A stretch of 64,000 nucleotides of DNA from a phage, in sequence record OZ346222.1. One strand, given 5' to 3'. The notes under the pieces are model-generated. The model saw only the letters and a list, made by a program, of their open reading frames with translations, was not told where the DNA came from and ran no database searches. Positions 1,118-55,642 of this stretch are shown in pieces; the stretch's first letter is position 1; the number at the start of each line of letters is the position of its first letter. The translations under genes were made by a program, and so were the position numbers.

Positions 1118-1145
1118 GCCCTGCCCGAAAGGGTGGGGCTTTTTG
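1118..1145 (+). terminator. rho-independent terminator (GAAA tetraloop hairpin + T-run)
   Basis: GCCCTGCCC-GAAA-GGGTGGGGC stem-loop followed by TTTTT; identical element at 11516. Confidence 0.6.
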
Positions 1146-1927
1146 CATTAGGAGACAGCAAATTGAAATTTATCTACAAAGAACACTACCACAAAGGTGT
1201 TGTGTGGAGCCTGTTTGACGGATCTGGTGGTGCAGTCATTGACTGGGCAAAAGCTGGGTATCTGTGCCTGTGCTTTAATGCAGAAGGTGCTGATCACGGC
1301 AGTTATGCAGAGGTGATAACCGATCATCCCAACATTCACTATGTGGATTATTGGATTGACCCATGGTTCCCTCAGGAAACTTTTTGCATGTACCCAGCTC
1401 CAGACTTTATTCTTGCATTTCCTCCGTGCACGCATTTAGCGGTATCAGGTGCTGCACATTTTAAGAAAAAGCTGGCTAAGGATCCTTTGATCCAAATTAA
1501 TGCTGTAAAGGATGCTCGGGTTGCGGAAGAGTTGGGAGAGATTTACGATTGCCCGTGGCATGTAGAGAATCCTGTAGGGGTTATGTCCACACTGTGGCGA
1601 AAACCTGATTACCGTTTTCATCCTTCGGATTATGGTGGGTATTTACCGGAGGATGATGTAAACCCCTGGTTTCCTGAATTTATAGCTCCACGTGATGCCT
1701 ATCCAAAAATAACTTGCGGCTGGATAGGCAATGGATTTATAATCCCGGCCACAAAACCTGTCCCGCAAATAGTTGACGCGGTTAGCGGGTATTCCATGCA
1801 ACACGCCAAGCTGGGTGGAAAGAGTGCAAGAACGAAGATGATCCGAAGCCTCACGCCACGTGGCTGGGCAAAAGCCGTATTCTTAGCAAACGAGCCTGTA
1901 GTAAGGAGCAGAATTAATGGGAAGTAA
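1133..1927 (+). CDS. DNA (cytosine-5) methyltransferase-like protein
   Basis: C5-MTase-like motifs: LFDGSGG (motif I), FPPCTHLAVSG (PC motif IV), VENPVG (ENV motif VI); only 264 aa; true start may lie downstream since 5' end overlaps terminator. Confidence 0.55.
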   Translation: MGLFALGDSKLKFIYKEHYHKGVVWSLFDGSGGAVIDWAKAGYLCLCFNAEGADHGSYAEVITDHPNIHYVDYWIDPWFPQETFCMYPAPDFILAFPPCTHLAVSGAAHFKKKLAKDPLIQINAVKDARVAEELGEIYDCPWHVENPVGVMSTLWRKPDYRFHPSDYGGYLPEDDVNPWFPEFIAPRDAYPKITCGWIGNGFIIPATKPVPQIVDAVSGYSMQHAKLGGKSARTKMIRSLTPRGWAKAVFLANEPVVRSRINGK

Positions 1928-3995
1928 ATTTATGGCATCTGCATACAACCGTTTCGGTGAGCCAAACCCGAAAGCAACTAAGTATAAAAGTGGGGGAAGT
2001 GTGAAACGAGACTATCGTGATGAAAAAGAGGTTGAAACTGTAGAGACTGTTTTAGAAAATACTAAAATCGTCCCTGTCCCACAACAAAATATCGGTCTGA
2101 TGGCTGCACAATATTTTGGTGTGCGATCAGCATTATCCCAAGAAGATGGTGTGACAGTCACTGCAACATATTTCCCATATTACGACCGCTACGGAAATCT
2201 GTCCGGTTTCAAAAAGCGTGACTGGACGATTCCTAAAGAGCAAAGAGGCCATTTCTCCGTTGTTGGCATAGTAAAGGCTAACTCTCAGATGTTTGGTCAA
2301 AAGCTGTGTGCATCTTCCAACAACCGTAAGCAGATTAACGTTTGTGAGGGAGAAGGTGATGTTATTGCAGCATGGCAGGCTGCATATCAGATACAAGTAA
2401 AAGGGATTCTCACCAACGCTAAAGCCCCGGCAAAGGTGAAACAGTGGGCTAAAGAGGTCCAGGACGGGATCGATGCAGTTATCAACGGTGGCGATCTGGC
2501 AGGAAAACCATGCCTGCCTTTTGTTGGAATTAACTGTGGATGTGCAAACGCAGTAGATACTTTTGCAAACAATGAGAAGTTTATCCGTAGCTATGGAACA
2601 GTTGTGCTGGCAATGGATAACGATGCAGCTAACGAGGTAGAGAAGCAAAAACACGTCATTAAAGGTGTTGAGGCCACGCACAATATCGCAGCATTTTTGA
2701 TGGCTGATAACGTTTACCACGTAGAATACCCTGGTGAAGTAAATGACCCTGACGGGGTAAAAGATATCCGTGACATGCTGAAGGCTAAAAAGCTGGAAGA
2801 TATTGTCAACATGTTCCGGCACCCTGTTAAATATGTGCCTGATGCTGTGTCGGATTTAGAAGACTTCTCTATCGAGTCTTTGCGGAAAAAGACTTCCAAC
2901 GGGGTAGATATCAGCGCAGAGTTCCCAAAACTGCAAAAAATGCTAAAAGGCTTGCACAAAGGGACACTCGTAATGCTTACAGGGCCATCAGGGGGCGGTA
3001 AAACAACTGTAGCTAAAAAACTGGAACATTGTATTGCAAGATACCTAATGGACCCGACATGCCCGAAGGCTGATGACTATGAAGAGGATGATCGTCTATG
3101 TATGATCCATCTTGAGGAGGACCCGGAGGAAGCAATTAACTCCTTGTATGCAAACCAGTTAGGGTTTGATGTTAAAGAGTTTGTTGAAGATCCTAGCCAG
3201 TTTTTAACTGATCAAGAACACGCAGAGATTCACCAATCATGGGCAAAAGCTGGAAAAATCAAAGTGTTCAAACATTTCGGATCTATTCCGGTGGACGAGT
3301 TGATTACCAAGCTTAAGCAAATGGTTTGCCTGTACCATTGCCGTTATATTGTGCTGGATCACCTGTCCATGGTAATTTCAGGGCTTAATGTTAAGGATGA
3401 GCGAAAAGAACTGGACATGGCTATGACTCAGCTGGCTGCGTTTTGTAAGCAGTTTAACGTGTTTATCTTAGTGATCGCTCACCTCAAACGTACAGAGATT
3501 GTGCCTCCTAAGGACAAGGATGGTAACCCGTTACCTTTCTGGTATCCTGTGCGAAAAGAGAATTTGCGAGGATCGGCGGGGCTTGAACAGTTGAGTTGGG
3601 TAGTCATAGGTGTCGAGGCCGAAGAAATGGTGGATCGTTCTCGTGGACGTGTCCGTCTGGTAGGTCTTAAAAACCGTCCAGCAAAAACTTTAGGTATTGC
3701 TGACACTTTGGTTATGGACCCGCACACAGGTAAGTTCCATGATGCCAGTAATTGGTACTGGGACAAAGAAATGCAAATGTTTACAGACGGAGAAGGTGGG
3801 GAGGTTGTTTGGAGACCTCAGGCTATGTTTGAGGATCAGGAGCATGCAGTTGTAGAAACACCTATGGGCAAGGTTGTGGCTGATAAGGTTGTAACTCCTA
3901 CTGTTAAGCCTGTTGACACGCAGGAAGACCTCCAGTACGATGATCCATCCTCTGACCCGGTCCCTGGTTTTGAGGATGATGAAACGCCTTTTTAA
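1917..3995 (+). CDS. DNA primase/helicase (TOPRIM primase + DnaB-like helicase, T7 gp4-like)
   Basis: TOPRIM-like CEGEGD and MDNDAA motifs; Walker A GPSGGGKTT; Walker B IVLDHLS; acidic C-terminus ending DDETPF. Confidence 0.8.
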   Translation: MGSKFMASAYNRFGEPNPKATKYKSGGSVKRDYRDEKEVETVETVLENTKIVPVPQQNIGLMAAQYFGVRSALSQEDGVTVTATYFPYYDRYGNLSGFKKRDWTIPKEQRGHFSVVGIVKANSQMFGQKLCASSNNRKQINVCEGEGDVIAAWQAAYQIQVKGILTNAKAPAKVKQWAKEVQDGIDAVINGGDLAGKPCLPFVGINCGCANAVDTFANNEKFIRSYGTVVLAMDNDAANEVEKQKHVIKGVEATHNIAAFLMADNVYHVEYPGEVNDPDGVKDIRDMLKAKKLEDIVNMFRHPVKYVPDAVSDLEDFSIESLRKKTSNGVDISAEFPKLQKMLKGLHKGTLVMLTGPSGGGKTTVAKKLEHCIARYLMDPTCPKADDYEEDDRLCMIHLEEDPEEAINSLYANQLGFDVKEFVEDPSQFLTDQEHAEIHQSWAKAGKIKVFKHFGSIPVDELITKLKQMVCLYHCRYIVLDHLSMVISGLNVKDERKELDMAMTQLAAFCKQFNVFILVIAHLKRTEIVPPKDKDGNPLPFWYPVRKENLRGSAGLEQLSWVVIGVEAEEMVDRSRGRVRLVGLKNRPAKTLGIADTLVMDPHTGKFHDASNWYWDKEMQMFTDGEGGEVVWRPQAMFEDQEHAVVETPMGKVVADKVVTPTVKPVDTQEDLQYDDPSSDPVPGFEDDETPF

Positions 3996-4053
3996 TGTTT
4001 AACAAAGAGTGGGAGGGGTAGTACAACCGCCTCCCCTTTAAGGAGAACTGTAT

Positions 4054-6447
4054 ATGAGTATGTGGTCTTTCGATTTTGAGTCATCCGGTTTGCTGGAAGA
4101 CCCAGATCTTTATTATCACTGCGGTCTGTTTAAAGAGCTGAATAAGAACCGTTTTATGCTGTTCCTTCCTCTAAATGACCGCACACACTACTCCGAGGAG
4201 GATATAGAAAAGGCTAAGAACTTCATTCTGTCAAAGAAAACTCTTTATAAAGATTTTGAAGTTCGCATAGCAGATTTTTCGGAGTTGGAAGGTTGGCTTA
4301 CAGGCAATTCTGACTGGTCACCAACAGCTTTGAACTGCCATAACTGCTACAGTTATGACTTTATGCTAATGGAAAGATTATCCGGTATTCATTTTGATAT
4401 GTTCCGTGATCCTAAATGCATGGGGACTATCAACGACCACCAGGTTAACCTGTTTGATACGTTGGCTATGAGCCGAATCTTGTGGCCTGATCGCCCTTTA
4501 CCAAAAGGTTGTCCGGACGCTGTATTCAACCCGGTTACTAAGAAAATGCAACCTGTTGGTCCTCACGGCCTTATGGCATGGGGCTACGCCCTTGGTAACC
4601 AGAAAGTTCAAATTGATGACTGGCGCGATCTTCCGTTGTGGAAGTATGTGGATCGTGTATTCGAGGACGTTATCATCCAGGAGCTGCTCTGGAAAGAGCT
4701 GGTAGCGGAATCAAAAGGTGTATTCTACGGCAAATCTGACATGCAGAACTTTATGTACGATCCAGCCAAAGAGAAGCCGAAAGGGTTCAAGAAGATCACC
4801 TGGAAGAACGCATTACGTCGAGGCATGCTGCAGCACTTCCTGATGGAGCTGCAGGCCCGTCAGGGTGTATACTTCGACATAGATGGAGCTATTGCTTTAC
4901 GTGACCGTTGCGATGCGTGGATGAAAGAAATCGCTGATCGTGTTGAACCACAACTACCTTTAAAAGAGCTGTCAATGTCTCAGCGGCCCAAGTTCCCTGA
5001 AAAGCCGTTTAACCAAGACGGGACAATCTCTAATAATGGTTGGAAATGGTTAAAAGATAAGCTTGGCTATCCTGTAGACATGAGTGCTTTAGAGTTCAAA
5101 GCCCCGCCTAAGCGAGCATTTACCTCTACAGGAGATGTCAGCAAGATGGGGATAAAATGGTGTGAAGAGATGGGCTGCAAAGACCCCGATAAGATGGCTG
5201 ATTTCTTGAGAGGCTATATTAAGGGCACCTCCACACCACAACCCTTACCTAAAGAGCTGATGGATCAGGCAATAAGTGATCTGCAGCAGAAGCGAATGCC
5301 TGACTGCAAGATACCTATGAAAATCAGCAATCAGGACGACATCAAGCGATACCTAATCAGTGCTGGTTGGCTCCCAACAATGTGGAGAACTAAAGATGTA
5401 ACTAAAGACAGCAAGAAGAAAGCTTTACCTGATGCAGATGTTGATGCACGAGTATATGCATATATGGACGAGCTTTTGGAGTCAGAGTATTGTGACCTAA
5501 TTATCAACTTCTGGAACAAAACTGATGCTAAGTTCCAGACAACCGTGCACAAGTTCCGAAGCTTTCCTAACTCCGAAAGGATTAAAAAGGAAGTATTCGG
5601 GAAAATACGTAGAAAAGCCAGGGCACTTATTACTTCTCCGCAACTGAAAGATACGTTTGGACACCTATGCCCAAATCTTGAAAAATTGAACGGAGAGATG
5701 GCTAAAGATATCGTCTTGTGGTTATCATTGCGAAACCGCAGATCGGTCCTTGATCCAATCAAGGAGGATAAGGTTGATACTGGTCTTCTTAATCACCCAC
5801 GTTTGAAGATTGACCATAAGCTTCCTGCTAAAAGCTCTGGATTAACAAACACTTCCAGACAGAAACACAGTATTTGTGCAAACATGCCTAAACCATCTCC
5901 TAAAGTGGTTATGGGTAAAGAGATGCGTAGTCTGTGGGGTGTTCCTCCGGGATACTTTGAGATCGGTATTGACGGGTCCAACTTAGAGCAGCTTATCGGG
6001 GCTTGGGGTGCCTTTGAGTTCGACAACGGCCTGTATTATGATGTTGTAAGTAACGGAGACGCACACCAAAACAATGCTGAGGCATATACAAAAGTGGCAG
6101 GCAGAGAGGTGTCCCGTAACGACGGTAAACCTATCACGTATGGGGTTATGTACGGGGCACAAAAAGATAAAGTTGCAGATATGTTGGACATCTCCCCAGA
6201 GTTGGGACAAAGGGTAATCGATGCACTCTGGGATGCCAACCCAGGTCTTAAGGGGCGCAAAGAGGATCTGGAGAAATTCTGGGAAGCAACAGGTAAGAAG
6301 TTTATCTACTCTTTTGATGGTCATGCTATCTGGACCCGATCTAAACACTCTTTACTTAATGCATACCAACAAAATGGCGGTGCATCGTTGTGTGACTTAG
6401 TTGGAATACTCATGCACCACCAGATGGTGAAGCGTGGGTGGTACGAT
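4054..6447 (+). CDS. DNA polymerase, family A (exon 1: 3'-5' exonuclease and polymerase motifs A and B)
   Basis: Exo I FDFESSG; motif A-like IDGSNLEQL; motif B-like KPITYGVMYGA; uninterrupted ORF runs to TAA at 6481-6483 but lacks the conserved C-terminal region; 3' boundary set at proposed 5' splice site. Confidence 0.75.
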
Positions 6448-6753
6448 GAAGGTGTTCGTCGTATTATTTATTACCATAAATAACATTGTGGCTTCATAGA
6501 GTAATCTATGTCGAATAACCTCTTTAACTGCGGGAAGCCTAAACCTTATGGCAAGGTAATCCGCAACGAAGCGCTCAAAAGAGCGAACGCTCAGAGGCCA
6601 TTCCGAAAGGAAGTAGACCAGCAAGTGCGGTCGAAATGGGAGGATTCCTGTGGTTGCTTATCATAGGAATATGAGATGGTCCGATCCTACGTGAAAACGT
6701 ATGGCTATGCACGTAATGGTGCGGGGTAGCTTAACGACCTACCTGAACTATTG
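6448..6753 (+). other. putative group I self-splicing intron (about 306 nt, no ORF) in DNA polymerase gene
   Basis: Four in-frame stops between two same-frame polymerase ORFs; P-like CTGCGGGAAG (6527-6537), Q-like AATCCGCAACG (6558-6568), R-like GTAGACCAGCAAG (6613-6625), S-like ATGAGATGGTCCGA (6671-6684) with R/S covariation; exon UACGAU (6442-6447) can pair with intron GUCGUA (6458-6463) giving U.G at splice site; G at 6753. Confidence 0.5.
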
Positions 6754-7107
6754 GATGAGTACCAACTTCAAGTGCCTGACACACCGAAGTATAAGACTGT
6801 GTACACCTTCGACACAATTGAAGAACTGGAAGCATTTAAGGCAGAGCAGGAAGCCAAACTTCATGTGTTCGACGGTCATAAGTACAAAAAGGCACGCAAG
6901 GATGAGGACGGAAACGAAGTGGTTGACAGAGACGGAAACACGGTGTACGATCCTATCCTGAACGATGACGGAAAGCTTGAACTTATCTGGAGCCCTGTGG
7001 GTGAAATGGTGGTACATTGCTTCTGGCAAGCTTCTAAAATGATGGGAGTCCCGTTCCAGATCACAGGTGAATACTTGTGTGGTCGTAATTGGGGTGATTG
7101 TCACTAA
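6754..7107 (+). CDS. DNA polymerase, family A (exon 2: C-terminal region)
   Basis: Same frame as exon 1; ends NWGDCH, closely resembling the T7 gp5 C-terminus NWAICH; begins DEYQLQV, which after splicing would give WYD-DEYQ (motif C-like). Confidence 0.55.
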   Translation, partial: DEYQLQVPDTPKYKTVYTFDTIEELEAFKAEQEAKLHVFDGHKYKKARKDEDGNEVVDRDGNTVYDPILNDDGKLELIWSPVGEMVVHCFWQASKMMGVPFQITGEYLCGRNWGDCH

Positions 7108-7156
7108 TGTAAACTATCAACACATGGAAGTGTTGTTGAGCAAAGAGGAGACTTTT

Positions 7157-7856: not shown

Positions 7857-7866
7857 AGGAGGTAGG

Positions 7867-8569: not shown

Positions 8570-8572
8570 TAC

Positions 8573-26396: not shown

Positions 26397-26816
26397 ATGA
26401 ACATTAAATCTAATAATCCGGCATATAGCTTTGATAACGCTTTTTGTCACGGTCCGGCGGCGAAAGGATTCGAAATCGATGGTAAACTAATTATTGTCAA
26501 TGTTGACGGGGAAGAGGTTGCAGTATATCCGGTGGCAGACGTAAAAAGCCGTTTACAATGCCGCATGGATGTTACCGCCTATCAGCTTGATCCGGTCCGC
26601 ATAGTTGCCCTGGTCCTGGAAGAAGAAATTAAAGCCATGCACCATAGCAACAGATTTATTGGTGACGCGCAGGATAATATGAAAGTATGCCGCCATAAAG
26701 TTAATGAAGTGCTTAAAGAGTACGGCTATAAAGATCTTATGATCAAACGTGAGGAAAAATTCCGCTACCGTAACGACCTGGCAAATCGGATTTTTGAAAT
26801 ATACGAATCATTATAA
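26397..26816 (+). CDS. hypothetical protein (139 aa)
   Basis: RBS AAGAGG; last gene of rightward block. Confidence 0.5.
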   Translation: MNIKSNNPAYSFDNAFCHGPAAKGFEIDGKLIIVNVDGEEVAVYPVADVKSRLQCRMDVTAYQLDPVRIVALVLEEEIKAMHHSNRFIGDAQDNMKVCRHKVNEVLKEYGYKDLMIKREEKFRYRNDLANRIFEIYESL

Positions 26817-26834
26817 TTTTTTAACTGAATTATC

Positions 26835-26860
26835 AAGGGGCTTAGGCCCCTTTCTTTTTG
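26835..26860 (+). terminator. rho-independent terminator
   Basis: AAGGGGC-TTAG-GCCCCTT hairpin followed by TCTTTTT. Confidence 0.6.
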
Positions 26861-27477
26861 TCTGCTCTTCCCCCTACCATAAACGGCCCTACCTGGCAAG
26901 TGGAATAATTGACGAGCCATCAATCCCACACACTGTACAAATATACATGTAAAATAACTATTGCATAACCTTTCATTGTGTGGTAGCGGTGCTATTTTTT
27001 ACCTGTTTTCCTTCCAAAATTGCACGTAATGCAGCTATTGCACAAAATTTAACCTGATGCACATCTCCAATATCCTGTCAACAACTAAAAATCTTTATAA
27101 GTCATACACTTACACAGCATCGAAAGCGTGTTCTACGCGAAAAATCGAGTATAACTATAGCCGCCAGATCTCAGAATTCACGTACGCACGCCATTCTATA
27201 GCCTGCAAAGTATTTATTCCAACCACAGAATAACGGAATAGTCAATACCTGAATAAAATAATTATTCGTTTAAACTGCATAACATAAATCAGCTCAGGTG
27301 TCAACATTTTTCGTAAACAGTCTGAAATTGTCACTGTGAGTTATCATAAACAGAGAAATCTTTAGTCGTATAATGTTTACTGTACGTTACTATACTGACT
27401 GGAATCATTAGATGACTAATAGAAAGATAAGAAATAATTAACAATACAATTATTTTACCTGTAACAATAAGACAACT

Positions 27478-27726
27478 ATGCAAACGAATGGCATGGCGCG
27501 ACGGAGTCGCGACATAATATAAAAGCAGTAACCATCACCCCCGTGATGGTTTGTCTGCAATCTATTAATCAGATCATAGTTGCCTTGTATTCAGTTAATC
27601 ATGACATAATAAGCAAGGCAACTATAGATCTGCTAATAGTTGCCCTGCTTTTATATTATGTCATATATTATTAACTTGTTAATTGTTAACTTGCTAATTG
27701 TTTTCATGCAAACGAATGTCATGGCT
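27478..27726. repeat. palindrome-rich module flanked by 21-bp direct repeats
   Basis: ATGCAAACGAATG(G/T)CATGGC at 27478 and 27706; perfect 18-bp inverted repeat GACATAATATAAAAGCAG / CTGCTTTTATATTATGTC (27510/27645); 12-bp inverted repeat CATAGTTGCCTTG / CAAGGCAACTATG; several short hairpins. Confidence 0.75.
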
Positions 27727-27734
27727 TATCCTAT

Positions 27735-27805
27735 CTGTGTAAACAGTTAAGGTGTAAACTATCCAGGCGTAAACAGTCTATGCGGGAACAATCTATACGT
27801 GAACA
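27735..27805. repeat. iteron-like array of GT(A/G)AACAG octamers
   Basis: GTAAACAG / GTAAACTA / GTAAACAG / GTGAACAG spaced 10-20 bp; further copies near 27313, 28078, 28790. Confidence 0.6.
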
Positions 27806-28357
27806 GTGAAACATGAAATAATAACAGTCGTTATTGTGTCGAAAGTGTATAAGGTGTCAGACAAGTTTTTCTCCTCTTTGTCAAGTGCTGCATGAAAAAT
27901 TTACAAGCTTGTATGGTAGCATTTTTGCGGCCCTGTTTACATTCAGCGATGTATGTATAATCCTTGTTGTGTGGGCGTTTAGACGTCTAGACGGTCAGAA
28001 GTCTGCAGGTTAATACCTAATCTATCGGCTGCTAACTATATCCCACACAAATAGTAAGAAATATAATTGTTATGTGCGTAAACAGTAACTCATGTTATCA
28101 ATCCCTGTATGTATCGCCAGTGGTGCGCATAATGGGTATTATGTTAAATTGCCCGTAATGATAACTATTCTCACAATGATAGGTATTCTCATTCACTCCC
28201 ACAAGATAGGTTGCAAATGTTGTGCCACTGTGTGAACGGCCTAACCTATTAATTTGCCTCACTGCCTCGATATTTGAGAATTGTTATAAGAATGAGAAGT
28301 ATTCCCATTTCGTCCGCCTGGCAGCACTCCAGTCGCTACCGCTCATGACAGGGCAGA

Positions 28358-29610
28358 ACTAGACCCTCTTCAGATATTTCTGGCTGACTCTTCAGGTCTG
28401 TGTGGGAAAAGCCAACCTCTCCGGCGGCGGGGAGGGGGTCAATTAAAAAAAATTACGTGGTGCATGAAGCGCTCTTCAGGTAAGGCATGTGTTATGGGAT
28501 GAAACCCTCTTCAGGCAATGATATTTGTGGGTGTGATATTTGCTGGAAAGCCAGATATGACGGGACTCCTGGCGGGGCAGGGGTAGTACAGACAGGGAAA
28601 ATATGGGGGATGTAGTTGGGGAAATTGATCAGACAGGTAGAGTATGGAATATGTTACAAGTATGTTAAATAGGGAGGATGAATATCTGCAGGATTTGTGT
28701 GTAAAATCAAAGACTTAAGTGGTGTTGTGGTATTTTCTATAAATAATTCAAGTTTAATAGGTAATATTTGTCTCTATCCACTTTGTGTGGTAAACAGATT
28801 CAGATGAAATTGGTTTACAAGTGTATACATAATATACAAATTAAAGATACAAGAAACCCCCCTCCCCCTTCGGCTACCATTCACCTTTTCCTCTGACTGG
28901 TACTTAAACACTTATTCAGACTCTTCAGGTTATCACCCATATATCATATGGCAGTGACTGGTGTCCTCCGGCCCCTCTTTCGTCACCCGTCCGCTTCGCC
29001 ATGCTAATGCCATAGCCAATGGTTCGGTTGTTCACTCTGTTCACTCAGGTGTATCTCCATACCCCTTCAAACCGAAGAGAACAGAAAACCCGAATTACTC
29101 GGTAAAAGAAAAGAGAAGAACTTAATTTTATCAGGATAGGCAAGAATGTCAAGGCATGACTGCTCACTAAACAAGCAAACAGTCATGTGTGGAAGGTAAG
29201 TGATTGTGGTGGTGGGAAATTTAGTTGAAAGATGTGTTATAGGTGCGCTTCCAGCACTTTGGCCGGGCAGCTAATTGTGTGTCAGTCCAGCGGTTCATCC
29301 TCTACTTCACTGAAATCAATGTTCATGGTCTCCTCCCAACCATCGATCTCAGCACAAGAGTGGAGTTCTTTAGGGTTTACTCCCAAAGCCTCAGCAACAG
29401 AGTCTATATTTAACACCTCTGGCAGGTATGATTCATCGAATTCAAGGTAAATCAGGCCACGAGTGTTGTCAGCTCCACCAAATATCTCTATCTTCATGAA
29501 ATCTCCTCTGGAAATGAGAGTGTGAACAGGGTTTTATACGTTCTAATGCACAGGAATTATACACGTTTGCCTCTTCAGGCCATGCTTTAGCATGAGGAAC
29601 CTGTGTGGGC
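28358..29610. repeat. dispersed CTCTTCAG(G) motifs, often followed by TGTGTGGG
   Basis: Six copies on the same strand (about 28358, 28388, 28465, 28505, 28918, 29567) within a G/T-rich non-coding stretch. Confidence 0.6.
29282..29497 (-). CDS. hypothetical acidic protein (71 aa)
   Basis: Last gene of leftward block; begins MKIEI like several paralogs. Confidence 0.45.
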   Translation of the reverse strand: MKIEIFGGADNTRGLIYLEFDESYLPEVLNIDSVAEALGVNPKELHSCAEIDGWEETMNIDFSEVEDEPLD

Positions 29611-29618
29611 TCGGTGCT

Positions 29619-29831
29619 TCATAGTCTACCACCTCTGAACTCTTCGTGCTCAGGCATAATAGAGAACCAGATATCTACGATGTCCTCCCACGTCAGGTCA
29701 TCAGCCTCAGGATCTGTCTGGGACGAAGATGAAGAGTCCTCAGAATCTAAGTTTTCCTCTTTAACTGGCTCATCCAAGGGACATATGGTCACTCCTTCGG
29801 ATGTCTCTTCAGATGCATGTGTGTTGATCAT
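29619..29831 (-). CDS. hypothetical highly acidic protein (70 aa)
   Basis: Asp/Glu/Ser-rich. Confidence 0.4.
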   Translation of the reverse strand: MINTHASEETSEGVTICPLDEPVKEENLDSEDSSSSSQTDPEADDLTWEDIVDIWFSIMPEHEEFRGGRL

Positions 29832-30191
29832 GTTCCCCCCGTGAGTATTCCGGCAACAGCCGCTATGGAAGTAATGATCATCAGGATCACCACTAAAACT
29901 TCAGACAATGTTCTCATTGTGTATTCCATATTCTCCAAACTGTGTGTGGATACTATCACGGGAGCGGTAATGTGTCAACAGCAACGCCGCGAGGGTTTGG
30001 TTAAAATCCGAGCGTATGGTGATTTGGGTCAAAACGGACGTGCGTTCTCGCTACGCTCGAAAGAGAGACTTGTTTGTAGAAAGCTCTTAAACGCTCTGTA
30101 ACGAGATTATCTGTCCAAGGTATGCAATCGTGCACCAGATAAAGAAAAGGACGCCACAGAGCGTCCTAGGTGTCTTAAATTTGATATTTTG

Positions 30192-30491
30192 CTATACCCA
30201 TGAGGGCTTATCAAGGTTGGAGTAGCTGAAAGGTGTCAAAAGGTGACTGTCAAAATCCCTCAAACTATCCAAATCTTTTTCCTCGTCCTGACACCATCTG
30301 TGCCTACATTTATTGTTGTAGTGCATAGAATGCATAGCGTTCTGCAACTTAACAGGTACAAGTGATTCAGGAGTAGATAGTATTGTTGGGTATGCCAGAA
30401 TCACCTCAAACAGTGGAAACACATCGAAACTAAAGTCTATCTCTGCAGAGGTTGATGGCATATAGGAGTATTTAGCCGCCTTTGTAGACAT
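30192..30491 (-). CDS. hypothetical protein (99 aa)
   Basis: ATG after GAGGTGG; upstream stop overlaps RBS. Confidence 0.45.
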   Translation of the reverse strand: MSTKAAKYSYMPSTSAEIDFSFDVFPLFEVILAYPTILSTPESLVPVKLQNAMHSMHYNNKCRHRWCQDEEKDLDSLRDFDSHLLTPFSYSNLDKPSWV

Positions 30492-40736: not shown

Positions 40737-41051
40737 CTACCAGGTTACTGTCAAGTAGGCAACCGTATTATTTTTCTCTGGGGAGATGCCAACAACATCT
40801 ACCTGCAGACCTCCTGCCCTTAAATCTCCAACAATGTGCGGGAAGTAATCTGAGAGATGCGAGGGTAGATTTATCGAAAATCCGCACCCCAGAAAGCCTG
40901 CTAACGCTTTATTTTGTATCTCCCCTACAATCGCATCATAAATGGAGTTAAGCTCGTCAGGGAGTGTTACAGGGCGTTTTAGCGCTAGCTGGTGTAATTT
41001 GTCCTTAGCACTCATTTTCATTTCAGGTCTACCTCTGGGGGTGCCAACCAC
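40737..41051 (-). CDS. hypothetical protein (104 aa)
   Basis: In gene array. Confidence 0.45.
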   Translation of the reverse strand: MVGTPRGRPEMKMSAKDKLHQLALKRPVTLPDELNSIYDAIVGEIQNKALAGFLGCGFSINLPSHLSDYFPHIVGDLRAGGLQVDVVGISPEKNNTVAYLTVTW

Positions 41052-41551
41052 ATAAACGGCGGCAAGTCTAAACGGTTTTTCTTATCCCACACAAAATATG
41101 CATATGCTTGCCCGTCAGTTCTGCCGTTTGATTGAAATGATGGACGCTTAGATATTGTGATCACAGTAGTAGGTGCATTATCAAGCCACCATTCAAATCT
41201 GGCTTTGCTTTCCAGAAAATTAAGACGCAAAAGCATAATAACTACGTCAGCATCTTTCAACGCCTTGTCTACAAACTCACGAGCCAGGCTGTATGGTGGG
41301 TTGGTGATAATACAGTCAACATGGTTGTATTCTGTATTCAGATAGTCAACACCTTCTTGTATTTCTCCCCATGCAGATCCTAACGGCATACGGGAGTAGA
41401 ACACACCTGAGGCACTATTCCTGCAAGGCTCTAAGTAGGTCCAGTCTTCTGGGAACGGAATAAGGTCATACAGCCCTTCTGCACACCACTCCGGTGTCAC
41501 ATACTCATCGTAGGCGTTACGTTGTTCATCAGGTTTTCTAGCACAAGTCAT
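41018..41551 (-). CDS. DNA amino-methyltransferase (N6-adenine/N4-cytosine type), small
   Basis: Motif IV IITNPPYS. Confidence 0.55.
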   Translation of the reverse strand: MTCARKPDEQRNAYDEYVTPEWCAEGLYDLIPFPEDWTYLEPCRNSASGVFYSRMPLGSAWGEIQEGVDYLNTEYNHVDCIITNPPYSLAREFVDKALKDADVVIMLLRLNFLESKARFEWWLDNAPTTVITISKRPSFQSNGRTDGQAYAYFVWDKKNRLDLPPFMWLAPPEVDLK

Positions 41552-45125: not shown

Positions 45126-47249
45126 TCAGCAACCACAACTTCCGTAGTGCTTAACTCGCTCGATAACTTCCGCTTGCTTACCTTTATTGTAAGGACGGGA
45201 GTTAGGACTGGAAAGGTATCCAGACACACGTCGAATTACACTGATCGTTCCCTCTTCATGGTTTCCACACTCTGGGCATACAAAGCCTTTAGCTGTTGCA
45301 CTGAACTCACCAGAGAAACCACACTTGAGACATTTATCCACAGGTTGGTTAATACCAAAATACATAATGTGTTTATACCCGAAGTCAACAAGAGCCTCTA
45401 AAGCATCCAGGTTGTTTTTCAGGTTAGGTGTTTCTACGTATCCGATGTTGCCACCAGAGGAGATCATAGCAAAACCTTCCTCATACTCCCACTTATCAAA
45501 AGGAGAGCTATTTATCCATACTGGCTGATGGAAACTGTTGGTGAGATATTCATGCTCGTGCTTCAACACTTCCGGATATTCACGATCCAGACAGGTTGCA
45601 GCTTTATAGCATAGACTCTCAGAAGGAGTGCCGTACAAGCTAAATGCTAGTCTACTTTCCTTCTTGTATCGCTCACAAGCATCTCTCATGTGCTGAAGGA
45701 TTCCAAGAGCTAAAGCCTTGTCACCCTCTCTGCCCAAAATCTGACAGGTTTCATACACACCGATATACCCAATACTGATGGAAGCGTACCCGTCATAGAA
45801 GAGTTTATCAATACTCTCTTCAGGATCCAGGCGAGCAAGAGCGCCTTCACACCACATGATGGGGTTCTGCCCTGCCTTTGTTCCTTTTAGACGATTAACC
45901 CTTACAAGGTGAGCCTCGTATGCAAGATCCAAGTATTCGTCAAGAACTGCAAAGAAATCAACACCTTCCGTCTTAGCTTTTGCCGCAATCATTGGCAGGT
46001 TAAGGCTAACAACGCCTAAGTTAAATCTGCCAAGGTATTTCTCCTCGCCTGTTTCCAAGTCATTGTATTTGCTAAGAAAACTCCTGCAACCCATGCTAGT
46101 TACTTTGCCATCTGTCGAGCCTGTCACTTTTCTATTTAGTGGTACAGATACGAAGTCAGGATAGATACGTTCTGCACAGCATTCCAGAGCTAATCGTTTC
46201 AAATCATAGTTAGGATCCCCAGGGTTCATGTTGACACCCTCTTCCAGGAAGAACAGCACTTTAGGGAACACAGGTGTGATACGTTCTTCACCAAGACCCA
46301 TTTTGTGGACTTTCAGGTAGTTTTTGGTAATCATTCTACCAAAGACCGAGGTATCCAGTCCTAAACTCAATGTGATGAATGGAGTTTGCCCGTTGACAGA
46401 AGTTAACGTGTTGATTTGATAGAGCAAAGTCTGCATGCTGTCAAATACGTCTTTATCTGTCATTTGCATTGCAACAGTTTCAGCATCCGGCAACCAATGT
46501 TCCTGGCAAAATTTAAGGTTCTTCTCATAGGTTGCTTCAGCATACTGTGCCAGATAATGATCAATATGGCTCATAGTCTGACCACCATATTGAGCACTAG
46601 CTACCGCACTAGAGATTTGGCTAAGGATTGTTGTTGCAACCCCTATTGACTTCGGCTTACTGACATGGGCGTTACCAATGTTGAATCCGTTTTCCAACAT
46701 ATCTGGATAATTTACCAAACAACAGTTTGTTAACGGACTGATCAAGTAGTCAAGATCATGCACATGGATGAATCCTTTATTGTGCTCTTCGGAGACACGG
46801 TCTGGCAGGATCTGTGTTGATGCAAGGTGTTTGCTAAGAATACCTGCAAGCAGGTCGCGATGAGTGTGTACATGATTAGTAGGCTTATTTGCGTTTTCTT
46901 TTGTAAATTCATCACAAGTTCGATCCAAGAAGCCACTAATATCTGCAAGCAGTTTTCCACCTGCCTCTCTGTTATTATCTCTTGTCTGTCTATACTGGAT
47001 GTATTCTCTGGCTGCACATTTTAAACCCATATCCATAAGAGCATCTTCAACAAGGATATGGATATTTTTTACAGAGATCGTGCACTGGTCGGTTGGTAGA
47101 TTGTTAGCAACAACTTCATTAACCGCGCAGGCGATCCGGTAAGCTTCTTCTTCAGTATGTCCAGACTCAAGTAAGGCGGACTCTGCCGCCTTGATCACCT
47201 TAATTCCGTTATAGAACTCTTCTCTACCGTCCCGTTTTACAACTTTCAC
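45126..47249 (-). CDS. nrdD: anaerobic ribonucleoside-triphosphate reductase (class III)
   Basis: 707 aa; C-terminal glycyl-radical motif RVSGYL and Cys-rich zinc ribbon. Confidence 0.85.
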   Translation of the reverse strand: MKVVKRDGREEFYNGIKVIKAAESALLESGHTEEEAYRIACAVNEVVANNLPTDQCTISVKNIHILVEDALMDMGLKCAAREYIQYRQTRDNNREAGGKLLADISGFLDRTCDEFTKENANKPTNHVHTHRDLLAGILSKHLASTQILPDRVSEEHNKGFIHVHDLDYLISPLTNCCLVNYPDMLENGFNIGNAHVSKPKSIGVATTILSQISSAVASAQYGGQTMSHIDHYLAQYAEATYEKNLKFCQEHWLPDAETVAMQMTDKDVFDSMQTLLYQINTLTSVNGQTPFITLSLGLDTSVFGRMITKNYLKVHKMGLGEERITPVFPKVLFFLEEGVNMNPGDPNYDLKRLALECCAERIYPDFVSVPLNRKVTGSTDGKVTSMGCRSFLSKYNDLETGEEKYLGRFNLGVVSLNLPMIAAKAKTEGVDFFAVLDEYLDLAYEAHLVRVNRLKGTKAGQNPIMWCEGALARLDPEESIDKLFYDGYASISIGYIGVYETCQILGREGDKALALGILQHMRDACERYKKESRLAFSLYGTPSESLCYKAATCLDREYPEVLKHEHEYLTNSFHQPVWINSSPFDKWEYEEGFAMISSGGNIGYVETPNLKNNLDALEALVDFGYKHIMYFGINQPVDKCLKCGFSGEFSATAKGFVCPECGNHEEGTISVIRRVSGYLSSPNSRPYNKGKQAEVIERVKHYGSCGC

Positions 47250-51275: not shown

Positions 51276-51708
51276 TATGAATATCTTCAGCCTTTTCAGA
51301 TTGTTTTGTATACTTTCTTACATTAACACGATCCTCTACGGGGATATCATACGGGAGATCTTGAACAAGCATTGCCTCACCAGGTGCTTTATCTACATCT
51401 AAAATATCTACACCGTTATACATTTGTGGGTATCTAAAGTCTGCACGCATGACACCAGCAAATACATCTGCCTTTCGATAATGTGTTGGCTTATTTTTGC
51501 ATCGAACGTTTTTTCCACGAAGAACATCAATACTTTTTAAATCAAACCCTACGGCAAAGAGTGCAGCTCGGAGACCGTTTCGTGTGCGAACGTTAAACCC
51601 GGGGACGGTAGATAGAAAATCTAAAGTAACTGAAATAAATGTCTTTTTAGGAATCATAACATTACTCATATCTGTCTCCATTTCTGGCTCACCAACAAAG
51701 TGAGCCAT
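51208..51708 (-). CDS. hypothetical protein (166 aa)
   Basis: In nucleotide-metabolism cluster; no motif recognised. Confidence 0.45.
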   Translation of the reverse strand: MAHFVGEPEMETDMSNVMIPKKTFISVTLDFLSTVPGFNVRTRNGLRAALFAVGFDLKSIDVLRGKNVRCKNKPTHYRKADVFAGVMRADFRYPQMYNGVDILDVDKAPGEAMLVQDLPYDIPVEDRVNVRKYTKQSEKAEDIHIVDEPFNFEDLHRLEKLFGIES

Positions 51709-51767
51709 TATTATAGATTATCTAATACTATTAGTCAACACAAAAGTTACCTATCGCTGTGATAGGA

Positions 51768-52751: not shown

Positions 52752-52951
52752 TATTTAGCTCTCCTTGTTTTAATTTTGGAAATTTCGTCTGGGTTTATGT
52801 TGGCCTTAAATGCAAGGTATCTGTTGAACATGTCAGAGCACATATCTTGGGTGATCCTAGAGGCATACACTAGCTTACCTCCTAGATCATACACCTCTAG
52901 CCAGTCACCGTATCTGACTACAGGATCGCCACCTTTAGAACATCTGCCCAT
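52751..52951 (-). CDS. hypothetical protein (66 aa)
   Basis: Overlapping stop/start. Confidence 0.4.
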   Translation of the reverse strand: MGRCSKGGDPVVRYGDWLEVYDLGGKLVYASRITQDMCSDMFNRYLAFKANINPDEISKIKTRRAK

Positions 52952-52952
52952 T

Positions 52953-53546
52953 TCAAATACCTTCTAAAAATTTTCCTATTTTATACCAGCTATTAGCGGT
53001 ATAGTCAACACTGACCTTTAACTCCTCGAATTGCTCATAAGGCGTATCTTTTAGGATTTTAATAACTTCAGGTCGTGAAGCGAATTGGTTCAGGTATTCA
53101 TGCCTGTCGTCAATTATAACATCTACAGCCACATTCCCTTTGAAATGTGTGGCGTAGAAGCCGTGGCCCTGGGTGTGATCGTCCAGATCCATAAAATCAC
53201 TGGTCCAACGCTTTAAGAACCTTGATTTAGATGCAAGGTGACCTTTCTTGCATACCGAGATAAATGCAAGCTTGTGACCACGAGCCACCAAATCTTTCAT
53301 AACCTCAATAGCCCCCTCTTCAGGCTTAAGGAAGTCGTAGAGGAACGGATCACTCCAGAAATCAAAAGGTCCTATGATGTTTTCTTTGGGACGATCAGGC
53401 CAATACTTTGACAGATCGTAATACATTAGCCCATTAGAAGGTTTAGCTACTGTCTTACTGGCTGGACCATACAAACGCTCCAACCACTCCCACCATGCTG
53501 TTCCTGAATCTACCAGTGTCAAATCTACATCAATTCCGATTAACAT
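52953..53546 (-). CDS. HAD-superfamily hydrolase, putative 5'(3')-deoxyribonucleotidase
   Basis: N-terminal IGIDVDLTLVD (HAD DxDxT motif); within nucleotide-metabolism cluster. Confidence 0.5.
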   Translation of the reverse strand: MLIGIDVDLTLVDSGTAWWEWLERLYGPASKTVAKPSNGLMYYDLSKYWPDRPKENIIGPFDFWSDPFLYDFLKPEEGAIEVMKDLVARGHKLAFISVCKKGHLASKSRFLKRWTSDFMDLDDHTQGHGFYATHFKGNVAVDVIIDDRHEYLNQFASRPEVIKILKDTPYEQFEELKVSVDYTANSWYKIGKFLEGI

Positions 53547-54157
53547 TCTTCTTGGGCCTCTTTAGCATCAATATACTTGAACACAATCTCCGATGCACAC
53601 TCCCAAGGTGCACCTTCAGGGTTTACAACATCAAACTCAACCCCTTTTATTCCGTTCTTTTCCAGACTTAGATAGGTTCTGGAATCATTTCCCCAGTCAT
53701 ATCCTACACGGTGAATACGGAACAACAACAGATCTCCACCTGTGCTGTATGCGTACTCGCTAAGGCATGCCAGCTCCTCTTTGAATCCACCATCGGAGTA
53801 AACAACAGCCCCTTTACCTTCAGGGAAATCTTTCTTCAAAGATGCGACTGCGGCTTTACCGAAAGCATCTTCACCAAAGATAGGTTTAATCAGATTTTCA
53901 CTACAATGGATCATCCATTCTCGCGGAGAAACATGCTTGCCGTCTATCATTAAGAAAGGGCAAGGCTCTTCTTTGTAGTGGCGGTCATAAAGTGCATTCC
54001 AGAGTTGAGGAGTTACACCAGCTGCCTTAATTGCCACACTGAAGAGCATCTCCTTAACCTCACGGTGGTGTGAGTTAGGAATAGCTTCCAACAAGAGATC
54101 TGCAATGTGATCCTTACCACTGCTAGGTGGGGCGTTAAGAACAATAATATCCATCAA
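53540..54157 (-). CDS. putative deoxynucleoside monophosphate kinase (P-loop)
   Basis: LNAPPSSGKDHIADLL resembles the T4 gp1 P-loop (RSGKDTTADF). Confidence 0.5.
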   Translation of the reverse strand: MMDIIVLNAPPSSGKDHIADLLLEAIPNSHHREVKEMLFSVAIKAAGVTPQLWNALYDRHYKEEPCPFLMIDGKHVSPREWMIHCSENLIKPIFGEDAFGKAAVASLKKDFPEGKGAVVYSDGGFKEELACLSEYAYSTGGDLLLFRIHRVGYDWGNDSRTYLSLEKNGIKGVEFDVVNPEGAPWECASEIVFKYIDAKEAQEEC

Positions 54158-54357
54158 AAACCTCCGTGGTATTCTTCAACTGCATCAATAATACTTTTAC
54201 ACTTATCTACCAGCTCGTTAGCCACTACAGCATCGTCTTCCCAAACAGCTTCCTCAATCTGATCAAGCAATGATCGCATCTTACCCATCATTTCTGGGAT
54301 AAAGTTTTCTGAAAAGCTGTCTGGAATTGTTAACTTTAGTGTCATTGTGGTCTCCAA
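54154..54357 (-). CDS. hypothetical protein (67 aa)
   Basis: Overlapping stop/start. Confidence 0.4.
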   Translation of the reverse strand: METTMTLKLTIPDSFSENFIPEMMGKMRSLLDQIEEAVWEDDAVVANELVDKCKSIIDAVEEYHGGF

Positions 54358-54372
54358 TCATACTATGCGTTA

Positions 54373-54831
54373 TTAGAAGTTTGTTTTTACACGTCCCTTC
54401 TCATCAACCTCGTTGTTAGCTAAAAGCGTTACAAAGTCTGTGAAACGAACATGAAGAACCCTTTTCTTATCAAGGTATCCTAAAGCCACCCCTGAGAAAT
54501 TTAGCATCAAAGGGGCTAAAGAAGCTCTGGCACTGAAATGCTGTTGTTCTACCCTTCCAACACCCTTAGTGTAGGATGGGTTAAGATTGTAAGTTCTGAA
54601 TCCCAGTTTTGTTGGAGCTTTAGAATTAAAAACGACTTTATAGCGTTTCTTACTCAACTTATGCTCCAGGATAAGCATTCCCTTATCACCTTTGATAAGT
54701 TGAAAATCTGTAAAGTGCTCTTTTAAGACGAAAGGTAGTGCCAGTCCCATCGCCTGTCCTCTTTGTACCGCTGTCTCACCAAAAGCTTTTGCATCAGTAA
54801 GTTCTTTGGTCAAGTCTATGCTTTTGATCAT
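54373..54831 (-). CDS. hypothetical protein (152 aa)
   Basis: In gene array. Confidence 0.45.
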   Translation of the reverse strand: MIKSIDLTKELTDAKAFGETAVQRGQAMGLALPFVLKEHFTDFQLIKGDKGMLILEHKLSKKRYKVVFNSKAPTKLGFRTYNLNPSYTKGVGRVEQQHFSARASLAPLMLNFSGVALGYLDKKRVLHVRFTDFVTLLANNEVDEKGRVKTNF

Positions 54832-55642
54832 ACCTGGTCTCCAAAATGTATTGTAGTTCTTTCTTACCTATACTCTTCATTCCAGCAGTCTTACCTGCTT
54901 CTTCTTGAAAAGAAGAATAGCATTCAGCAAACACTCTGTCAACACCGTTAACTAAAGATTTTATGAAATATGTTGATTCTTCAGATTTTGGGTCATCATC
55001 CCCCAATACTTTTCCAGCATTATACCCAACACGTCTTACACAGAAGTCGTAGTCATCTGGTGTGCTAAAAGAAAATAACTTATTCTCTCCAATCTCTACA
55101 GGATCCCTATTGCACGCCTTTTTCTCCCAAATTTGGAAAACACATGGCACGTCATAAGGTTTGCCATTAAGTAAAAACGAATTCTTAGGGCACCTTTCGC
55201 TGTAGACAAGGTGCATCGACATGTCCAGTTTGTTTGCAAAAAATATTTTTTCAAATGTCCGTGGCAAGATGAAGGCTATAGCCCCTCCAAGCTCTAGCAA
55301 TGATGCACAATGGTTAAAGAATTTGCAAGCTAAGGATGAATTCTTGCCAAATGGTGGGTTACCTATGAAGACATCTGCCTTGGGATGCACCTCCAAGAAG
55401 TTTGCCTGAATGCACGGTGTTGGTCCTTCAAATTCAGGATCTGGTACTAAATCGTACGACAGTATCTCTGAAAATAGTTTTGAAAAAGAACCCCTTCCAG
55501 CAGAAGGCTCAACGTATGCACAATTCCCATACTTATCTTTTACTTTACCAACAAGATATTCTGCATACTCAGGGTTTGTGTAGTATTTGTCGTTGGACTC
55601 TTTCTTGCTCAAAGTGCCTCCAAAAGGAAAAGGGAGGCGCAA
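54794..55642 (-). CDS. DNA N6-adenine methyltransferase-like
   Basis: Motif I VEPSAGRGSF; motif IV FIGNPPFG. Confidence 0.65.
   Translation of the reverse strand: MRLPFPFGGTLSKKESNDKYYTNPEYAEYLVGKVKDKYGNCAYVEPSAGRGSFSKLFSEILSYDLVPDPEFEGPTPCIQANFLEVHPKADVFIGNPPFGKNSSLACKFFNHCASLLELGGAIAFILPRTFEKIFFANKLDMSMHLVYSERCPKNSFLLNGKPYDVPCVFQIWEKKACNRDPVEIGENKLFSFSTPDDYDFCVRRVGYNAGKVLGDDDPKSEESTYFIKSLVNGVDRVFAECYSSFQEEAGKTAGMKSIGKKELQYILETRYDQKHRLDQRTY

Follow-up and report, generated by a model that had tools for sequence, protein, structure and literature searches.

Three compact predicted methyltransferase genes in an rV5-like coliphage: a C5-type protein lacking a recognition domain and two related amino-methyltransferases, one with a candidate small partner

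Described cytosine-5 methyltransferases of the PF00145 type, such as M.HhaI, M.HaeIII and DNMT3A/DNMT3B, are characterized by a PC nucleophile, an EN(V/P) glutamate and a motif VIII strand with a W-G-N signature. A phage variant of this fold, CmoX (PDB 8yf3), is a DNA cytosine C5-carboxymethyltransferase whose selectivity hinges on an Arg at the position of HhaI N304 (PMC12783734). Among amino-methyltransferases, the gamma-class DNA adenine enzymes of the M.TaqI type (M.BseCI, CamA and the methyltransferase domain of MmeI) have the motif order X (D.Y.TP), I (EP.xGxG) and IV (NPPY/F) and a large C-terminal DNA-recognition domain, M.TaqI itself having 421 aa. RNA m6A enzymes with a related core include METTL5-TRMT112 and archaeal PH1948/Ta1320, and METTL5-type enzymes require a small partner protein.

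The DNA analysed here (64,000 nucleotides, referred to as the window) is from a Vequintavirus, an rV5-like E. coli myovirus, and showed 97–99.9% identity to 120–142 phage records in GenBank. These records keep the same three genes and already label them as methyltransferases, one Dcm-like C5 and two putative N6-adenine; the presence of three such genes in vequintaviruses is already known from many GenBank annotations and is mentioned in genome papers. The region 1133..55642 is not one feature but contains three separate genes spread over 64 kb of early and replication genes, with the following associated features:

1116..1144, plus strand: GC-rich, terminator-like hairpin and trailing T run, ggccctgcccgaaagggtggggcttttt, identified by inspection of the sequence, separating P1 from the ORF upstream
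1163..1927, plus strand: P1, C5-cytosine-methyltransferase-like protein of 254 aa without a target-recognition domain, TTG start, phrog_757
41018..41551, minus strand: P2, predicted gamma-type amino (N6-adenine-type) methyltransferase core of 177 aa with no separate recognition domain, RBS and ATG start, phrog_799
54373..54831, minus strand: candidate P3 partner, basic protein of 152 aa, phrog_9938 (function unknown), RBS GGAG, 38-nt overlap with the end of P3
54794..55612, minus strand: P3, predicted gamma-type amino methyltransferase of 272 aa, P2-like core with a ~105-aa C-terminal extension, TTG start, phrog_5172

All three methyltransferase ORFs are present on these strands with catalytic motifs that are intact and conserved across homologues, and phage family matches were strong for P1 (phrog_757 'DNA methyltransferase', 5e-87), P2 (phrog_799 'DNA methyltransferase', 8e-67) and P3 (phrog_5172, unknown function, 4e-129), which bears out the initial annotation in its claim of three methyltransferase ORFs with these motifs. 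Its coordinates held for P2, while the 5' ends of P1 and P3 were corrected. For P1 the most likely start is TTG 1163 and not GTG 1133, since the latter sits within the terminator-like hairpin, after which come AGGAG as the predicted RBS and TTG 1163, the start also used in GenBank. P3 most likely starts at TTG 55612 (RBS GGAGG) and not at TTG 55642, because TTG 55642 sits in a hairpin. Neighbours of the three genes encode hypothetical proteins, a primase/helicase, a ClpP-like protease and a DnaQ-like exonuclease; no recognisable restriction nuclease was seen among the adjoining genes, and P1, P2 and P3 are therefore predicted to be orphans. Overall, the genes are best explained as three independent, conserved genes for putative SAM-dependent nucleic-acid methyltransferases, each an unusually compact enzyme, and as core genes of rV5-like phages located in early and replication gene blocks.

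The AlphaFold model of P1 was confident (pLDDT 93) and had the C5-type class I Rossmann fold of methyltransferases. Its best fold matches were all DNA, or DNMT2-type, cytosine-5 methyltransferases, with DNMT3A and DNMT3B at the top. In profile-profile comparisons P1 aligned with canonical C5 enzymes at E 2.7e-6 and with DNMT3A at 1.8e-4, which paired motif I, PC (C89), EN (E135) and the strand of motif VIII, where P1 also has the W-G-N signature. The motifs SLFDGSGG, FPPC and ENP are common to its homologues, and SLFDG of the motif I SAM loop is identical to that of DNMT3A. The FPPC nucleophile C89 pairs with HhaI C81 and the PC of DNMT3A (Cys in 225 of 232 homologues), E135 of VENP pairs with HhaI E119 (E in 229 and the following N in 223), and motif II N39 is N or D in 228; C89, E135, P137, G96 and R228 are 97–99% conserved across this set. 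Just one glycine of motif I is well kept in the family (G22 84%, G20 53%). P1 had no match in Pfam or NCBIfam, PF00145 being absent even at E up to 1, and its family profile found no significant match among PDB sequences. Two homologues (P0054 and P0069) pass PF00145 with 24.7 and 28.5 bits against the gathering score of 22 bits, with matches covering motifs I–IV only.

P1, a putative enzyme, differs from M.HhaI and DNMT3A in several respects besides the missing PF00145 match. Two independent sequence-based profile alignments placed T184 (Thr in 220 of 232 homologues) opposite HhaI R165/DNMT3A R792 and K182 opposite R163/R790, indicating by sequence alignment that P1 lacks the otherwise near-universal Arg of motif VIII (QxRxR). 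No GN motif X was recognisable. In the AlphaFold model and profile alignments only ~45 residues separate the strand at 184–189 from the C-terminal helix at 233–253, in comparison to intervals of 139 residues in M.HhaI and ~95 in DNMT3A, and a target-recognition domain between motifs VIII and IX is lacking; a small recognition region is nevertheless a feature that P1 shares with DNMT3. The suggestion that P1 is too short for a typical recognition domain was thus upheld, and applies to the entire family, which comprises more than 1000 sequence clusters, all of 210–260 aa, in lambdoid, T1-like and rV5-like phages. The best explanation is that P1 represents a divergent cytosine-5 methyltransferase catalytic domain, predicted from sequence and model, that keeps the Cys nucleophile and ENx glutamate and is essentially devoid of a recognition domain.

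The 3' end of P1 shares 11 nt with the primase/helicase gene, which starts at 1917, and the two genes are predicted to be translationally coupled. P1 homologues are solitary in lambdoid nin regions and T1-like phages, and some in nin regions are adjoined by PF05869 genes; no neighbour gene is shared among these loci, and no CmoA or ligase genes lie beside the homologues. This does not favour the earlier proposal that P1 may need a partner, as it is P3 instead that has a conserved adjoining small gene. Domains related to P1 were also seen fused to helicase-type DNA proteins.

Alternatively, P1 may not be a duplex-DNA m5C methyltransferase, and could act on another substrate (tRNA/RNA like DNMT2, single-stranded or replicating DNA, or free nucleotides) or transfer a non-methyl group, for example carboxymethyl from host Cx-SAM like CmoX. 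The absent recognition domain, the Thr in place of the cytosine-contacting motif VIII Arg and the partly kept motif I glycines are consistent with this, as are Arg228 and Arg233, both conserved and close to where the C-terminal helix begins, given the selectivity Arg of CmoX (PMC12783734). CmoX is, however, a full-length protein of 333 aa with SPPC that travels with CmoA and a ligase; P1 instead has FPPC, lacks a recognition domain and is not accompanied by such genes. The DNMT3A sequence has GRSW, the Arg of which we take to be at the HhaI N304-equivalent position, and DNMT3A uses SAM, so an Arg at this position is not diagnostic. The leading fold matches are DNA enzymes, DNMT3A/DNMT3B, that themselves have a minimal recognition region, and the helicase-type fusions of related domains also argue for a role on DNA. 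We consider this alternative unlikely, and the initial annotation's idea of activity on nucleotides in particular is unsupported, the closest folds all being those of DNA or DNMT2-type enzymes.

P2 and P3 were found to be homologous (hhalign probability 98%, E 1e-13), with additional cross-hits in family searches. The three genes, which had been assigned to three different classes, hence make up two, as P2 and P3 form one gamma-type lineage; they are best explained as putative paralogous amino-methyltransferases with the M.TaqI-like motif order. In P2 this order is DxYxTP (D15.Y.T19P), EPC..SG (E41P) and TNPPY (T83NPPY), and in P3 it is DKYYT (D8..YT12), EPSAGRGSF (E35PSAGxG) and GNPPFG (G84NPPFG), with motifs X, I and IV invariant within both families, including T19 and T83-N-P-P in the P2 alignment. 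The P2 family profile matched M.TaqI (1.8e-5, spanning motifs X, I and IV) and ErmC' (7.6e-5), and its GenBank label is 'putative N6 adenine methyltransferase'. P3 matched the PADLOC model MTase_II PDLC03255 nearly end to end (3.7e-34, residues 18–263 on model positions 2–249 of 269), and P2 reached just 9.7e-4 on one PADLOC type II methyltransferase model. The fold of P3 superposed over 228–253 of its 272 residues on M.TaqI, M.BseCI, CamA and MmeI. In contrast to these enzymes with their large recognition domains, P2 is a bare 177-aa core that ends ~90 residues past NPPY, and P3 has an extension of just ~105 aa plus a linked, separately encoded small protein.

P2 resembles the small phage Dam family (PF05869; TIGR01712, phage N-6-adenine-methyltransferase) in size (~165–180 aa), phage origin and an NPPY-type motif, and P2 and one homologue match PF05869 weakly. 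Membership was rejected, as the scores of P2 were far below the curated cut-offs (19.2 bits vs 28.1 for PF05869 and 16.1 vs 97 for TIGR01712).

Alternatively, P2, or P3 together with its small partner, or both, could be RNA N6-adenine methyltransferases, as in METTL5-TRMT112 or Erm/KsgA, acting on host or phage rRNA, tRNA or mRNA. Ta1320 and METTL5 were the best matches of the P3 profile among PDB sequences, the P2 profile aligns to ErmC' across nearly its full length, some sources call homologues 'predicted RNA methylase', and the small partner of METTL5-type enzymes parallels the P3 module. This possibility nevertheless appears improbable. The match of the RNA enzymes to P3 is limited to the ~150-residue Rossmann core, whereas DNA adenine enzymes align over the far longer span given above and the type II RM methyltransferase model covers P3 at full length; the weaker matches of P2 and its homologue are DNA enzymes (Dam PF05869 and EcoRI methylase), bacterial homologues of P3 occur near type I RM, and the P3 partner has no detectable sequence similarity to Trm112 or any solved structure.

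The 152-aa ORF overlapping the end of P3 encodes a basic protein (pI ~10), while P3 is acidic. It had no sequence match in Pfam or the PDB, nor a known fold or nuclease motif in these comparisons. BLASTP linked it to small ORFs directly adjoining P3 homologues on contigs of unrelated phages (9e-19 and 7e-11), and an HMM of its family detected it next to P3-like genes in 11 of 84 loci, 9 of them strongly and 2 weakly. The adjacency is kept despite dissimilar flanking genes, with gene order flipped in other phage loci. Because this pairing recurs, with flipped order, in at least 9 loci that otherwise have little in common, gene neighbourhood suggests that P3 and the 152-aa ORF form a two-gene module. 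In this phage P3 lies between DnaQ-like exonuclease and P-loop NTPase genes; its homologues in other phages are flanked by primase-helicase and DNA polymerase genes or adjoin those for ribonucleotide reductase, and bacterial homologues are found in defence-island-like settings adjoining a type I RM system.

A more far-reaching interpretation, put forward only tentatively, is that P3 is the catalytic half of an undescribed two-component adenine methyltransferase in which phrog_9938 (~140–150 aa) would provide DNA binding or specificity in trans, and/or that the P1 family is a recognition-domain-free C5-fold lineage. In the latter case the replacement of the cytosine-binding Arg by Thr together with the missing domain would imply that sequence specificity is very relaxed, or that the substrate or cofactor is non-canonical.

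The initial annotation had proposed that the three orphan enzymes extensively methylate the phage genome and so broadly evade host restriction. Three conserved methyltransferase genes with no recognisable adjoining nuclease fit this proposal, enzymes that lack a recognition domain might in principle act without specificity, and genome papers on related phages state such a role by analogy (PMC12210895). Maffei et al. 2021, however, described all tested Vequintavirinae as 'exceptionally susceptible' to the type I, II and III systems EcoKI, EcoCFT_I, EcoRI, EcoRV, EcoCFT_II and EcoP1_I, and concluded that they lack effective protection from restriction (PMC8594841). The window contains many such sites (EcoRI 8, EcoRV 25 and AGACC/GGTCT 80), and none of EcoRI, EcoRV and EcoP1 would cut DNA that is densely methylated at adenine or cytosine. 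By this literature on six systems the phage is not protected from restriction, protection from other systems being possible, and extensive methylation is contradicted and very unlikely. A literature search for vequintavirus methylomes, nucleoside analyses or restriction digests returned none.

Because these phages are very sensitive to restriction enzymes, P1, P2 and P3 probably mark a small set of specific sites and do not cloak the genome. During infection the enzymes would act on particular short motifs of the phage DNA as it replicates, with m5C made by P1 and m6A by P2 and by P3, which probably acts together with the small basic protein of the overlapping downstream ORF. These marks would guard against particular restriction or other nucleases of natural hosts, and would neither cover the genome nor protect from common E. 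coli RM systems. Such narrow, site-specific methylation, a mechanism that we infer from sequence comparisons, has a somewhat better than even chance of being correct.

A role on DNA unrelated to defence, either self-marking against the phage's own nucleases or timing of replication or packaging, can also be considered. Genes for several homing endonucleases, EndoVII and exonucleases lie in the vicinity, common RM systems are not countered, and the genes are located in replication and nucleotide-metabolism modules, as seen in the coupling of P1 to primase/helicase and in the replication and nucleotide-metabolism neighbours of P3 and its homologues. Early-module placement is, however, also typical of anti-restriction methyltransferases, and no nuclease is consistently linked to P1 or P3 homologues, which makes this role quite unlikely in comparison to the narrow, site-specific marking described above.

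In summary, a count of methyltransferase genes is no guide to restriction evasion, since phages with three such genes rank with the most RM-sensitive of coliphages. Modest leads are provided by the candidate partner of P3 and by the P1 variant. A conserved small-protein gene beside a compact adenine methyltransferase gene may indicate a split enzyme. The P1 family consists of very abundant C5-methyltransferase-like phage proteins without a recognition domain which, if active and loosely specific, would be a useful tool enzyme and would help explain DNA binding by minimal C5 enzymes such as DNMT3.

Scanning every ORF of the window with profiles revealed just three methyltransferase-like genes, P1, P2 and P3, and the initial annotation was correct in treating these as real, as each has a very strong family match (P1 to phrog_757, 5e-87; P2 to phrog_799, 8e-67; P3 to phrog_5172, 4e-129). 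None passed a curated Pfam or NCBIfam threshold, indicating that the proteins are divergent. Upstream of each gene lie a GC-rich hairpin with a T run and a ribosome-binding site of its own. The coordinates first proposed for P2 stand, but the 5' ends of P1 (GTG 1133) and P3 (TTG 55642) were rejected as they fall inside these hairpins, and the genes were placed as follows together with a small ORF beside P3.

Methyltransferase-like genes and the small neighbour of P3
1163..1927, plus strand: P1, C5-cytosine-methyltransferase-like protein, 254 aa (the GenBank form), TTG start at 1163 preceded by AGGAG
41018..41551, minus strand: P2, gamma-type amino-methyltransferase with NPPY, 177 aa as initially annotated, ATG start at 41551
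54794..55612, minus strand: P3, gamma-type amino-methyltransferase with NPPF, 272 aa, TTG start at 55612 preceded by GGAGG
54373..54831, minus strand: small protein, 152 aa, own ribosome-binding site, 38-nt overlap with the end of P3

The first 12 kb of the window and two other regions matched 120–142 GenBank phage records at 90–99.9% identity, nearly all of them from Escherichia phages assigned to Vequintavirus, the rV5-like myovirus genus. In the well-annotated relative RudolfGeigy (an Escherichia phage of the BASEL collection) the P1 counterpart is labelled 'Dcm-like C5 cytosine methyltransferase' and those of P2 and P3 are each labelled 'putative N6 adenine methyltransferase'. Methyltransferases were noted for all vequintaviruses in a genome paper (bioRxiv 10.1101/2020.01.19.911818) and orphan methyltransferases of three classes in a phi92-like relative (PMC12210895). 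The bare observation of three such genes is therefore already known from database annotation. Approximately 16–20 unannotated records (MG0656xx) named 'Campylobacter phage', with Campylobacter jejuni as host, were 97–99.9% identical to E. coli vequintaviruses in all three regions and look like mislabelled or contaminant genomes.

Other features of the window were noted as well. A related record annotates both the DNA polymerase (window 4054..7107, plus strand) and the class III anaerobic ribonucleotide reductase (window ~45126..47249, minus strand) as two joined pieces, and the polymerase reading frame in the window is broken between 6483 and 6751, pointing to an intervening sequence, perhaps an intron. 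The region at ~26,800..30,200, where a plus-strand gene block meets a minus-strand block, holds no ORF of at least 100 aa, and no CDS is annotated in the matching gap of the related record. A tRNA search of the whole window with ARAGORN was negative, although vequintaviruses are reported with 5 tRNAs.

Single-sequence searches of the PDB with P1, P2 and P3 returned nothing useful, and relationships were instead examined using family profiles. In the P2 family (160–230 aa), T19, TNPP and a number of Arg and Trp residues further downstream do not vary, and the motifs run in the order D.Y.TP, EPC.G.G and TNPPY; the P3 family (~250–290 aa) has D..YT, EPSAGxGxF, GNPPFG and a well-conserved C-terminal part. 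Profile–profile comparison (hhalign) showed homology along the full length of P2 (probability 98%, E 1e-13), so that P2 and P3 belong to one class, P3 being a P2-like core with ~105 additional residues, and the proposal of three different classes does not hold. The P2 family profile matched M.TaqI (1.8e-5) and ErmC' (7.6e-5). RNA targets for P2 and P3 are a rival reading of lower probability. A search for a P2 partner found neighbours kept only by synteny among close relatives. A bacterial P3 homologue adjoins a type I restriction–modification (RM) system, and some P3 homologues carry the Pfam label Mtase_EDM2. P3-type methyltransferases were also abundant in giant-virus metagenome assemblies (GVMAG contigs, loci L041–L098; proteins P0249–P0357), some of them with Mtase_EDM2, the domain that resembles a methyltransferase in a plant chromatin regulator.

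A nine-member HMM of the small protein beside P3 (phrog_9938, function unassigned) placed it immediately beside the methyltransferase gene in 9 of 84 P3-bearing loci with strong scores and in a further 2 with weak scores, all within the P3 subclade nearest the window (38–54% identity). BLASTP matches at 9e-19 and 7e-11 were to small ORFs directly upstream of, and overlapping, P3 homologues in three otherwise unrelated phage contigs, whose flanking genes were respectively primase-helicase and DNA polymerase A, NrdD and NrdG, or a class I ribonucleotide reductase. Overlapping ends in variable order were found at L019 (2583–3008), L020 (2591–3001), L021 (2619–3017), L027, L028, L033, L093 and L104. 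An adjacency that outlasts both a flip in gene order and a change of surroundings argues for P3 and the small protein as a putative functional two-gene module. The small proteins are mostly basic (pI ~9–10) while P3 is acidic (5.9), and they share the signatures PS(F/Y)TKGxGR and (Y/W)KV; searches of Pfam and the PDB gave no sequence match. The small protein may act in DNA binding, specificity, enzyme activation or otherwise, and this conserved neighbour is a modest, testable lead and not a discovery.

A database protein that seems to join the small protein naturally to a P3-like enzyme (P0259, 395 aa; L186 30–1217) was dropped as module evidence because an in-frame TAG followed by an AGGAGG ribosome-binding site separates the two parts; either the gene caller evidently applied a recoded genetic table (an artefact of calling, or recoding), or translation of the methyltransferase begins at ATT, a rare start codon. 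A weak BLASTP similarity (E 0.002) linking the small ORF to the gene that follows a bacterial P3 homologue was not borne out when the family HMM was applied. Some GenBank records mislabel the small protein as a second 'N6-adenine methyltransferase'.

The P1 family profile gave no significant PDB match (HaeIII at 0.36), and hhalign of P1 against M.HhaI alone was meaningless in global mode and covered only motif IV in local mode. As sequence profiles alone barely detected the relationship of P1 to C5 enzymes, a small canonical profile was assembled that combined M.HhaI with seven C5 enzymes of phages. The M.HhaI sequence used reproduced the published numbering (C81, E119, R165, N304) and retrieved phage C5 enzymes at 2e-66. 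P1 matched this profile at E 2.7e-6 (hhalign), with SLFDGSGG aligned to motif I, FPPC (C89) to the PC motif (C81), VENP (E135) to ENV (E119) and Y180-x-K182-x-T184 to Q161-x-R163-x-R165. An independent alignment with the DNMT3A catalytic domain (query 100% identical to PDB 5yx2_A) left the register unchanged, with W187 anchored to W795, K182 opposite R790 and T184 opposite R792; a pairing of P1 LGGKS with DNMT3A LLGRSW had negligible probability. In comparison to canonical C5 enzymes, P1 thus appears to have Thr at the position of the cytosine-contacting Arg. Residues C89, G96, E135, P137, P154, Y180, K182, T184, W187 and R228 were each 95–99% conserved among 232 P1 homologues, and together with the alignments this indicates, at the level of sequence, that the covalent-catalysis machinery is retained. 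A loop at 155–183 (YGGYLP...RDAY.K) is conserved too.

Only ~45 residues separate the motif VIII strand of P1 (184–189) from its long C-terminal helix (233–253), leaving no target-recognition domain and bearing out the suggestion that the protein is too short for a typical one. The C-terminal motif IRSxTPRGFAxAVF gave no confident match to motif IX or motif X, aligning weakly with motif IX 'RKLTPRE' (E 0.018). Pfam scans of longer P1 homologues showed no informative fused domains, and viral structure matches of P1 were named cytosine methylases, a few being domains of large helicase-type proteins. The Arg-to-Thr change could alternatively mean that the substrate or cofactor of P1 is not the canonical one, which appears the less probable reading. 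A Cx-SAM/CmoX role was downgraded because neither CmoA nor a ligase lies nearby, and because DNMT3A has Arg at the position equivalent to HhaI N304 and yet uses SAM. The missing recognition domain and the Arg-to-Thr change in P1 constitute a modest, testable lead and not a discovery.

In lambdoid prophages the P1 homologue is part of the nin region, within a gene series that runs Dam PF05869, DUF6378, an unknown gene, the homologue itself, NinG, RusA and Q; in a T1-like phage it is among early genes. No neighbour was common to these prophage and T1-like neighbourhoods, so the homologues stand alone and the proposed need for a partner was not upheld. The fixed nin block shows that a small adenine methyltransferase and a short C5-like enzyme also travel together outside rV5-like phages. 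In two E. coli prophage nin regions (L011 and L014) the block includes an unknown protein of ~165 aa 5' of the P1 homologue. In the window, the P1 stop and the primase/helicase start overlap by 11 nt (1917..1927), which suggests translational coupling of P1 to replication genes.

The initial observation is real given corrected coordinates and class count, while the interpretation placed on it is only partly supported. The searchable literature yielded no vequintavirus DNA methylome, nucleoside or restriction-digest data, and the only relevant phenotype is the exceptional susceptibility of Vequintavirinae to EcoKI, EcoCFT_I, EcoRI, EcoRV, EcoCFT_II and EcoP1_I, from which Maffei et al. (PMC8594841) concluded that these phages have no effective protection; this counts against extensive self-methylation. 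The window contains 8 GAATTC, 25 GATATC and 80 AGACC/GGTCT sites. The panel enzymes would be blocked by dense methylation at adenine or cytosine, so virion DNA cannot carry extensive methylation at these sites. Broad cloaking of the phage genome, for which the presence of three methyltransferase genes had been the argument, is contradicted by these results and is improbable. A role outside defence is a further rival reading of low probability. Palindrome and site statistics gave no decisive signal for any methyltransferase specificity in the window: GATC was frequent (368 sites), with an observed/expected value of 1.06 under a Markov model and ~1.5 times expectation by an estimate from base composition, CTAG (0.58), GTAC (0.71), TATA (0.76) and ACGT (0.77) were under-represented, and several GC-rich 6-mer palindromes were absent.

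The most economical reading, to which we give somewhat better than an even chance (roughly 0.55), is that P1, P2 and P3 methylate DNA either at specific sequences or at low occupancy. Targets distinct from those of the laboratory RM systems would follow, and the outcome would be narrow protection in natural hosts or another role in DNA metabolism.
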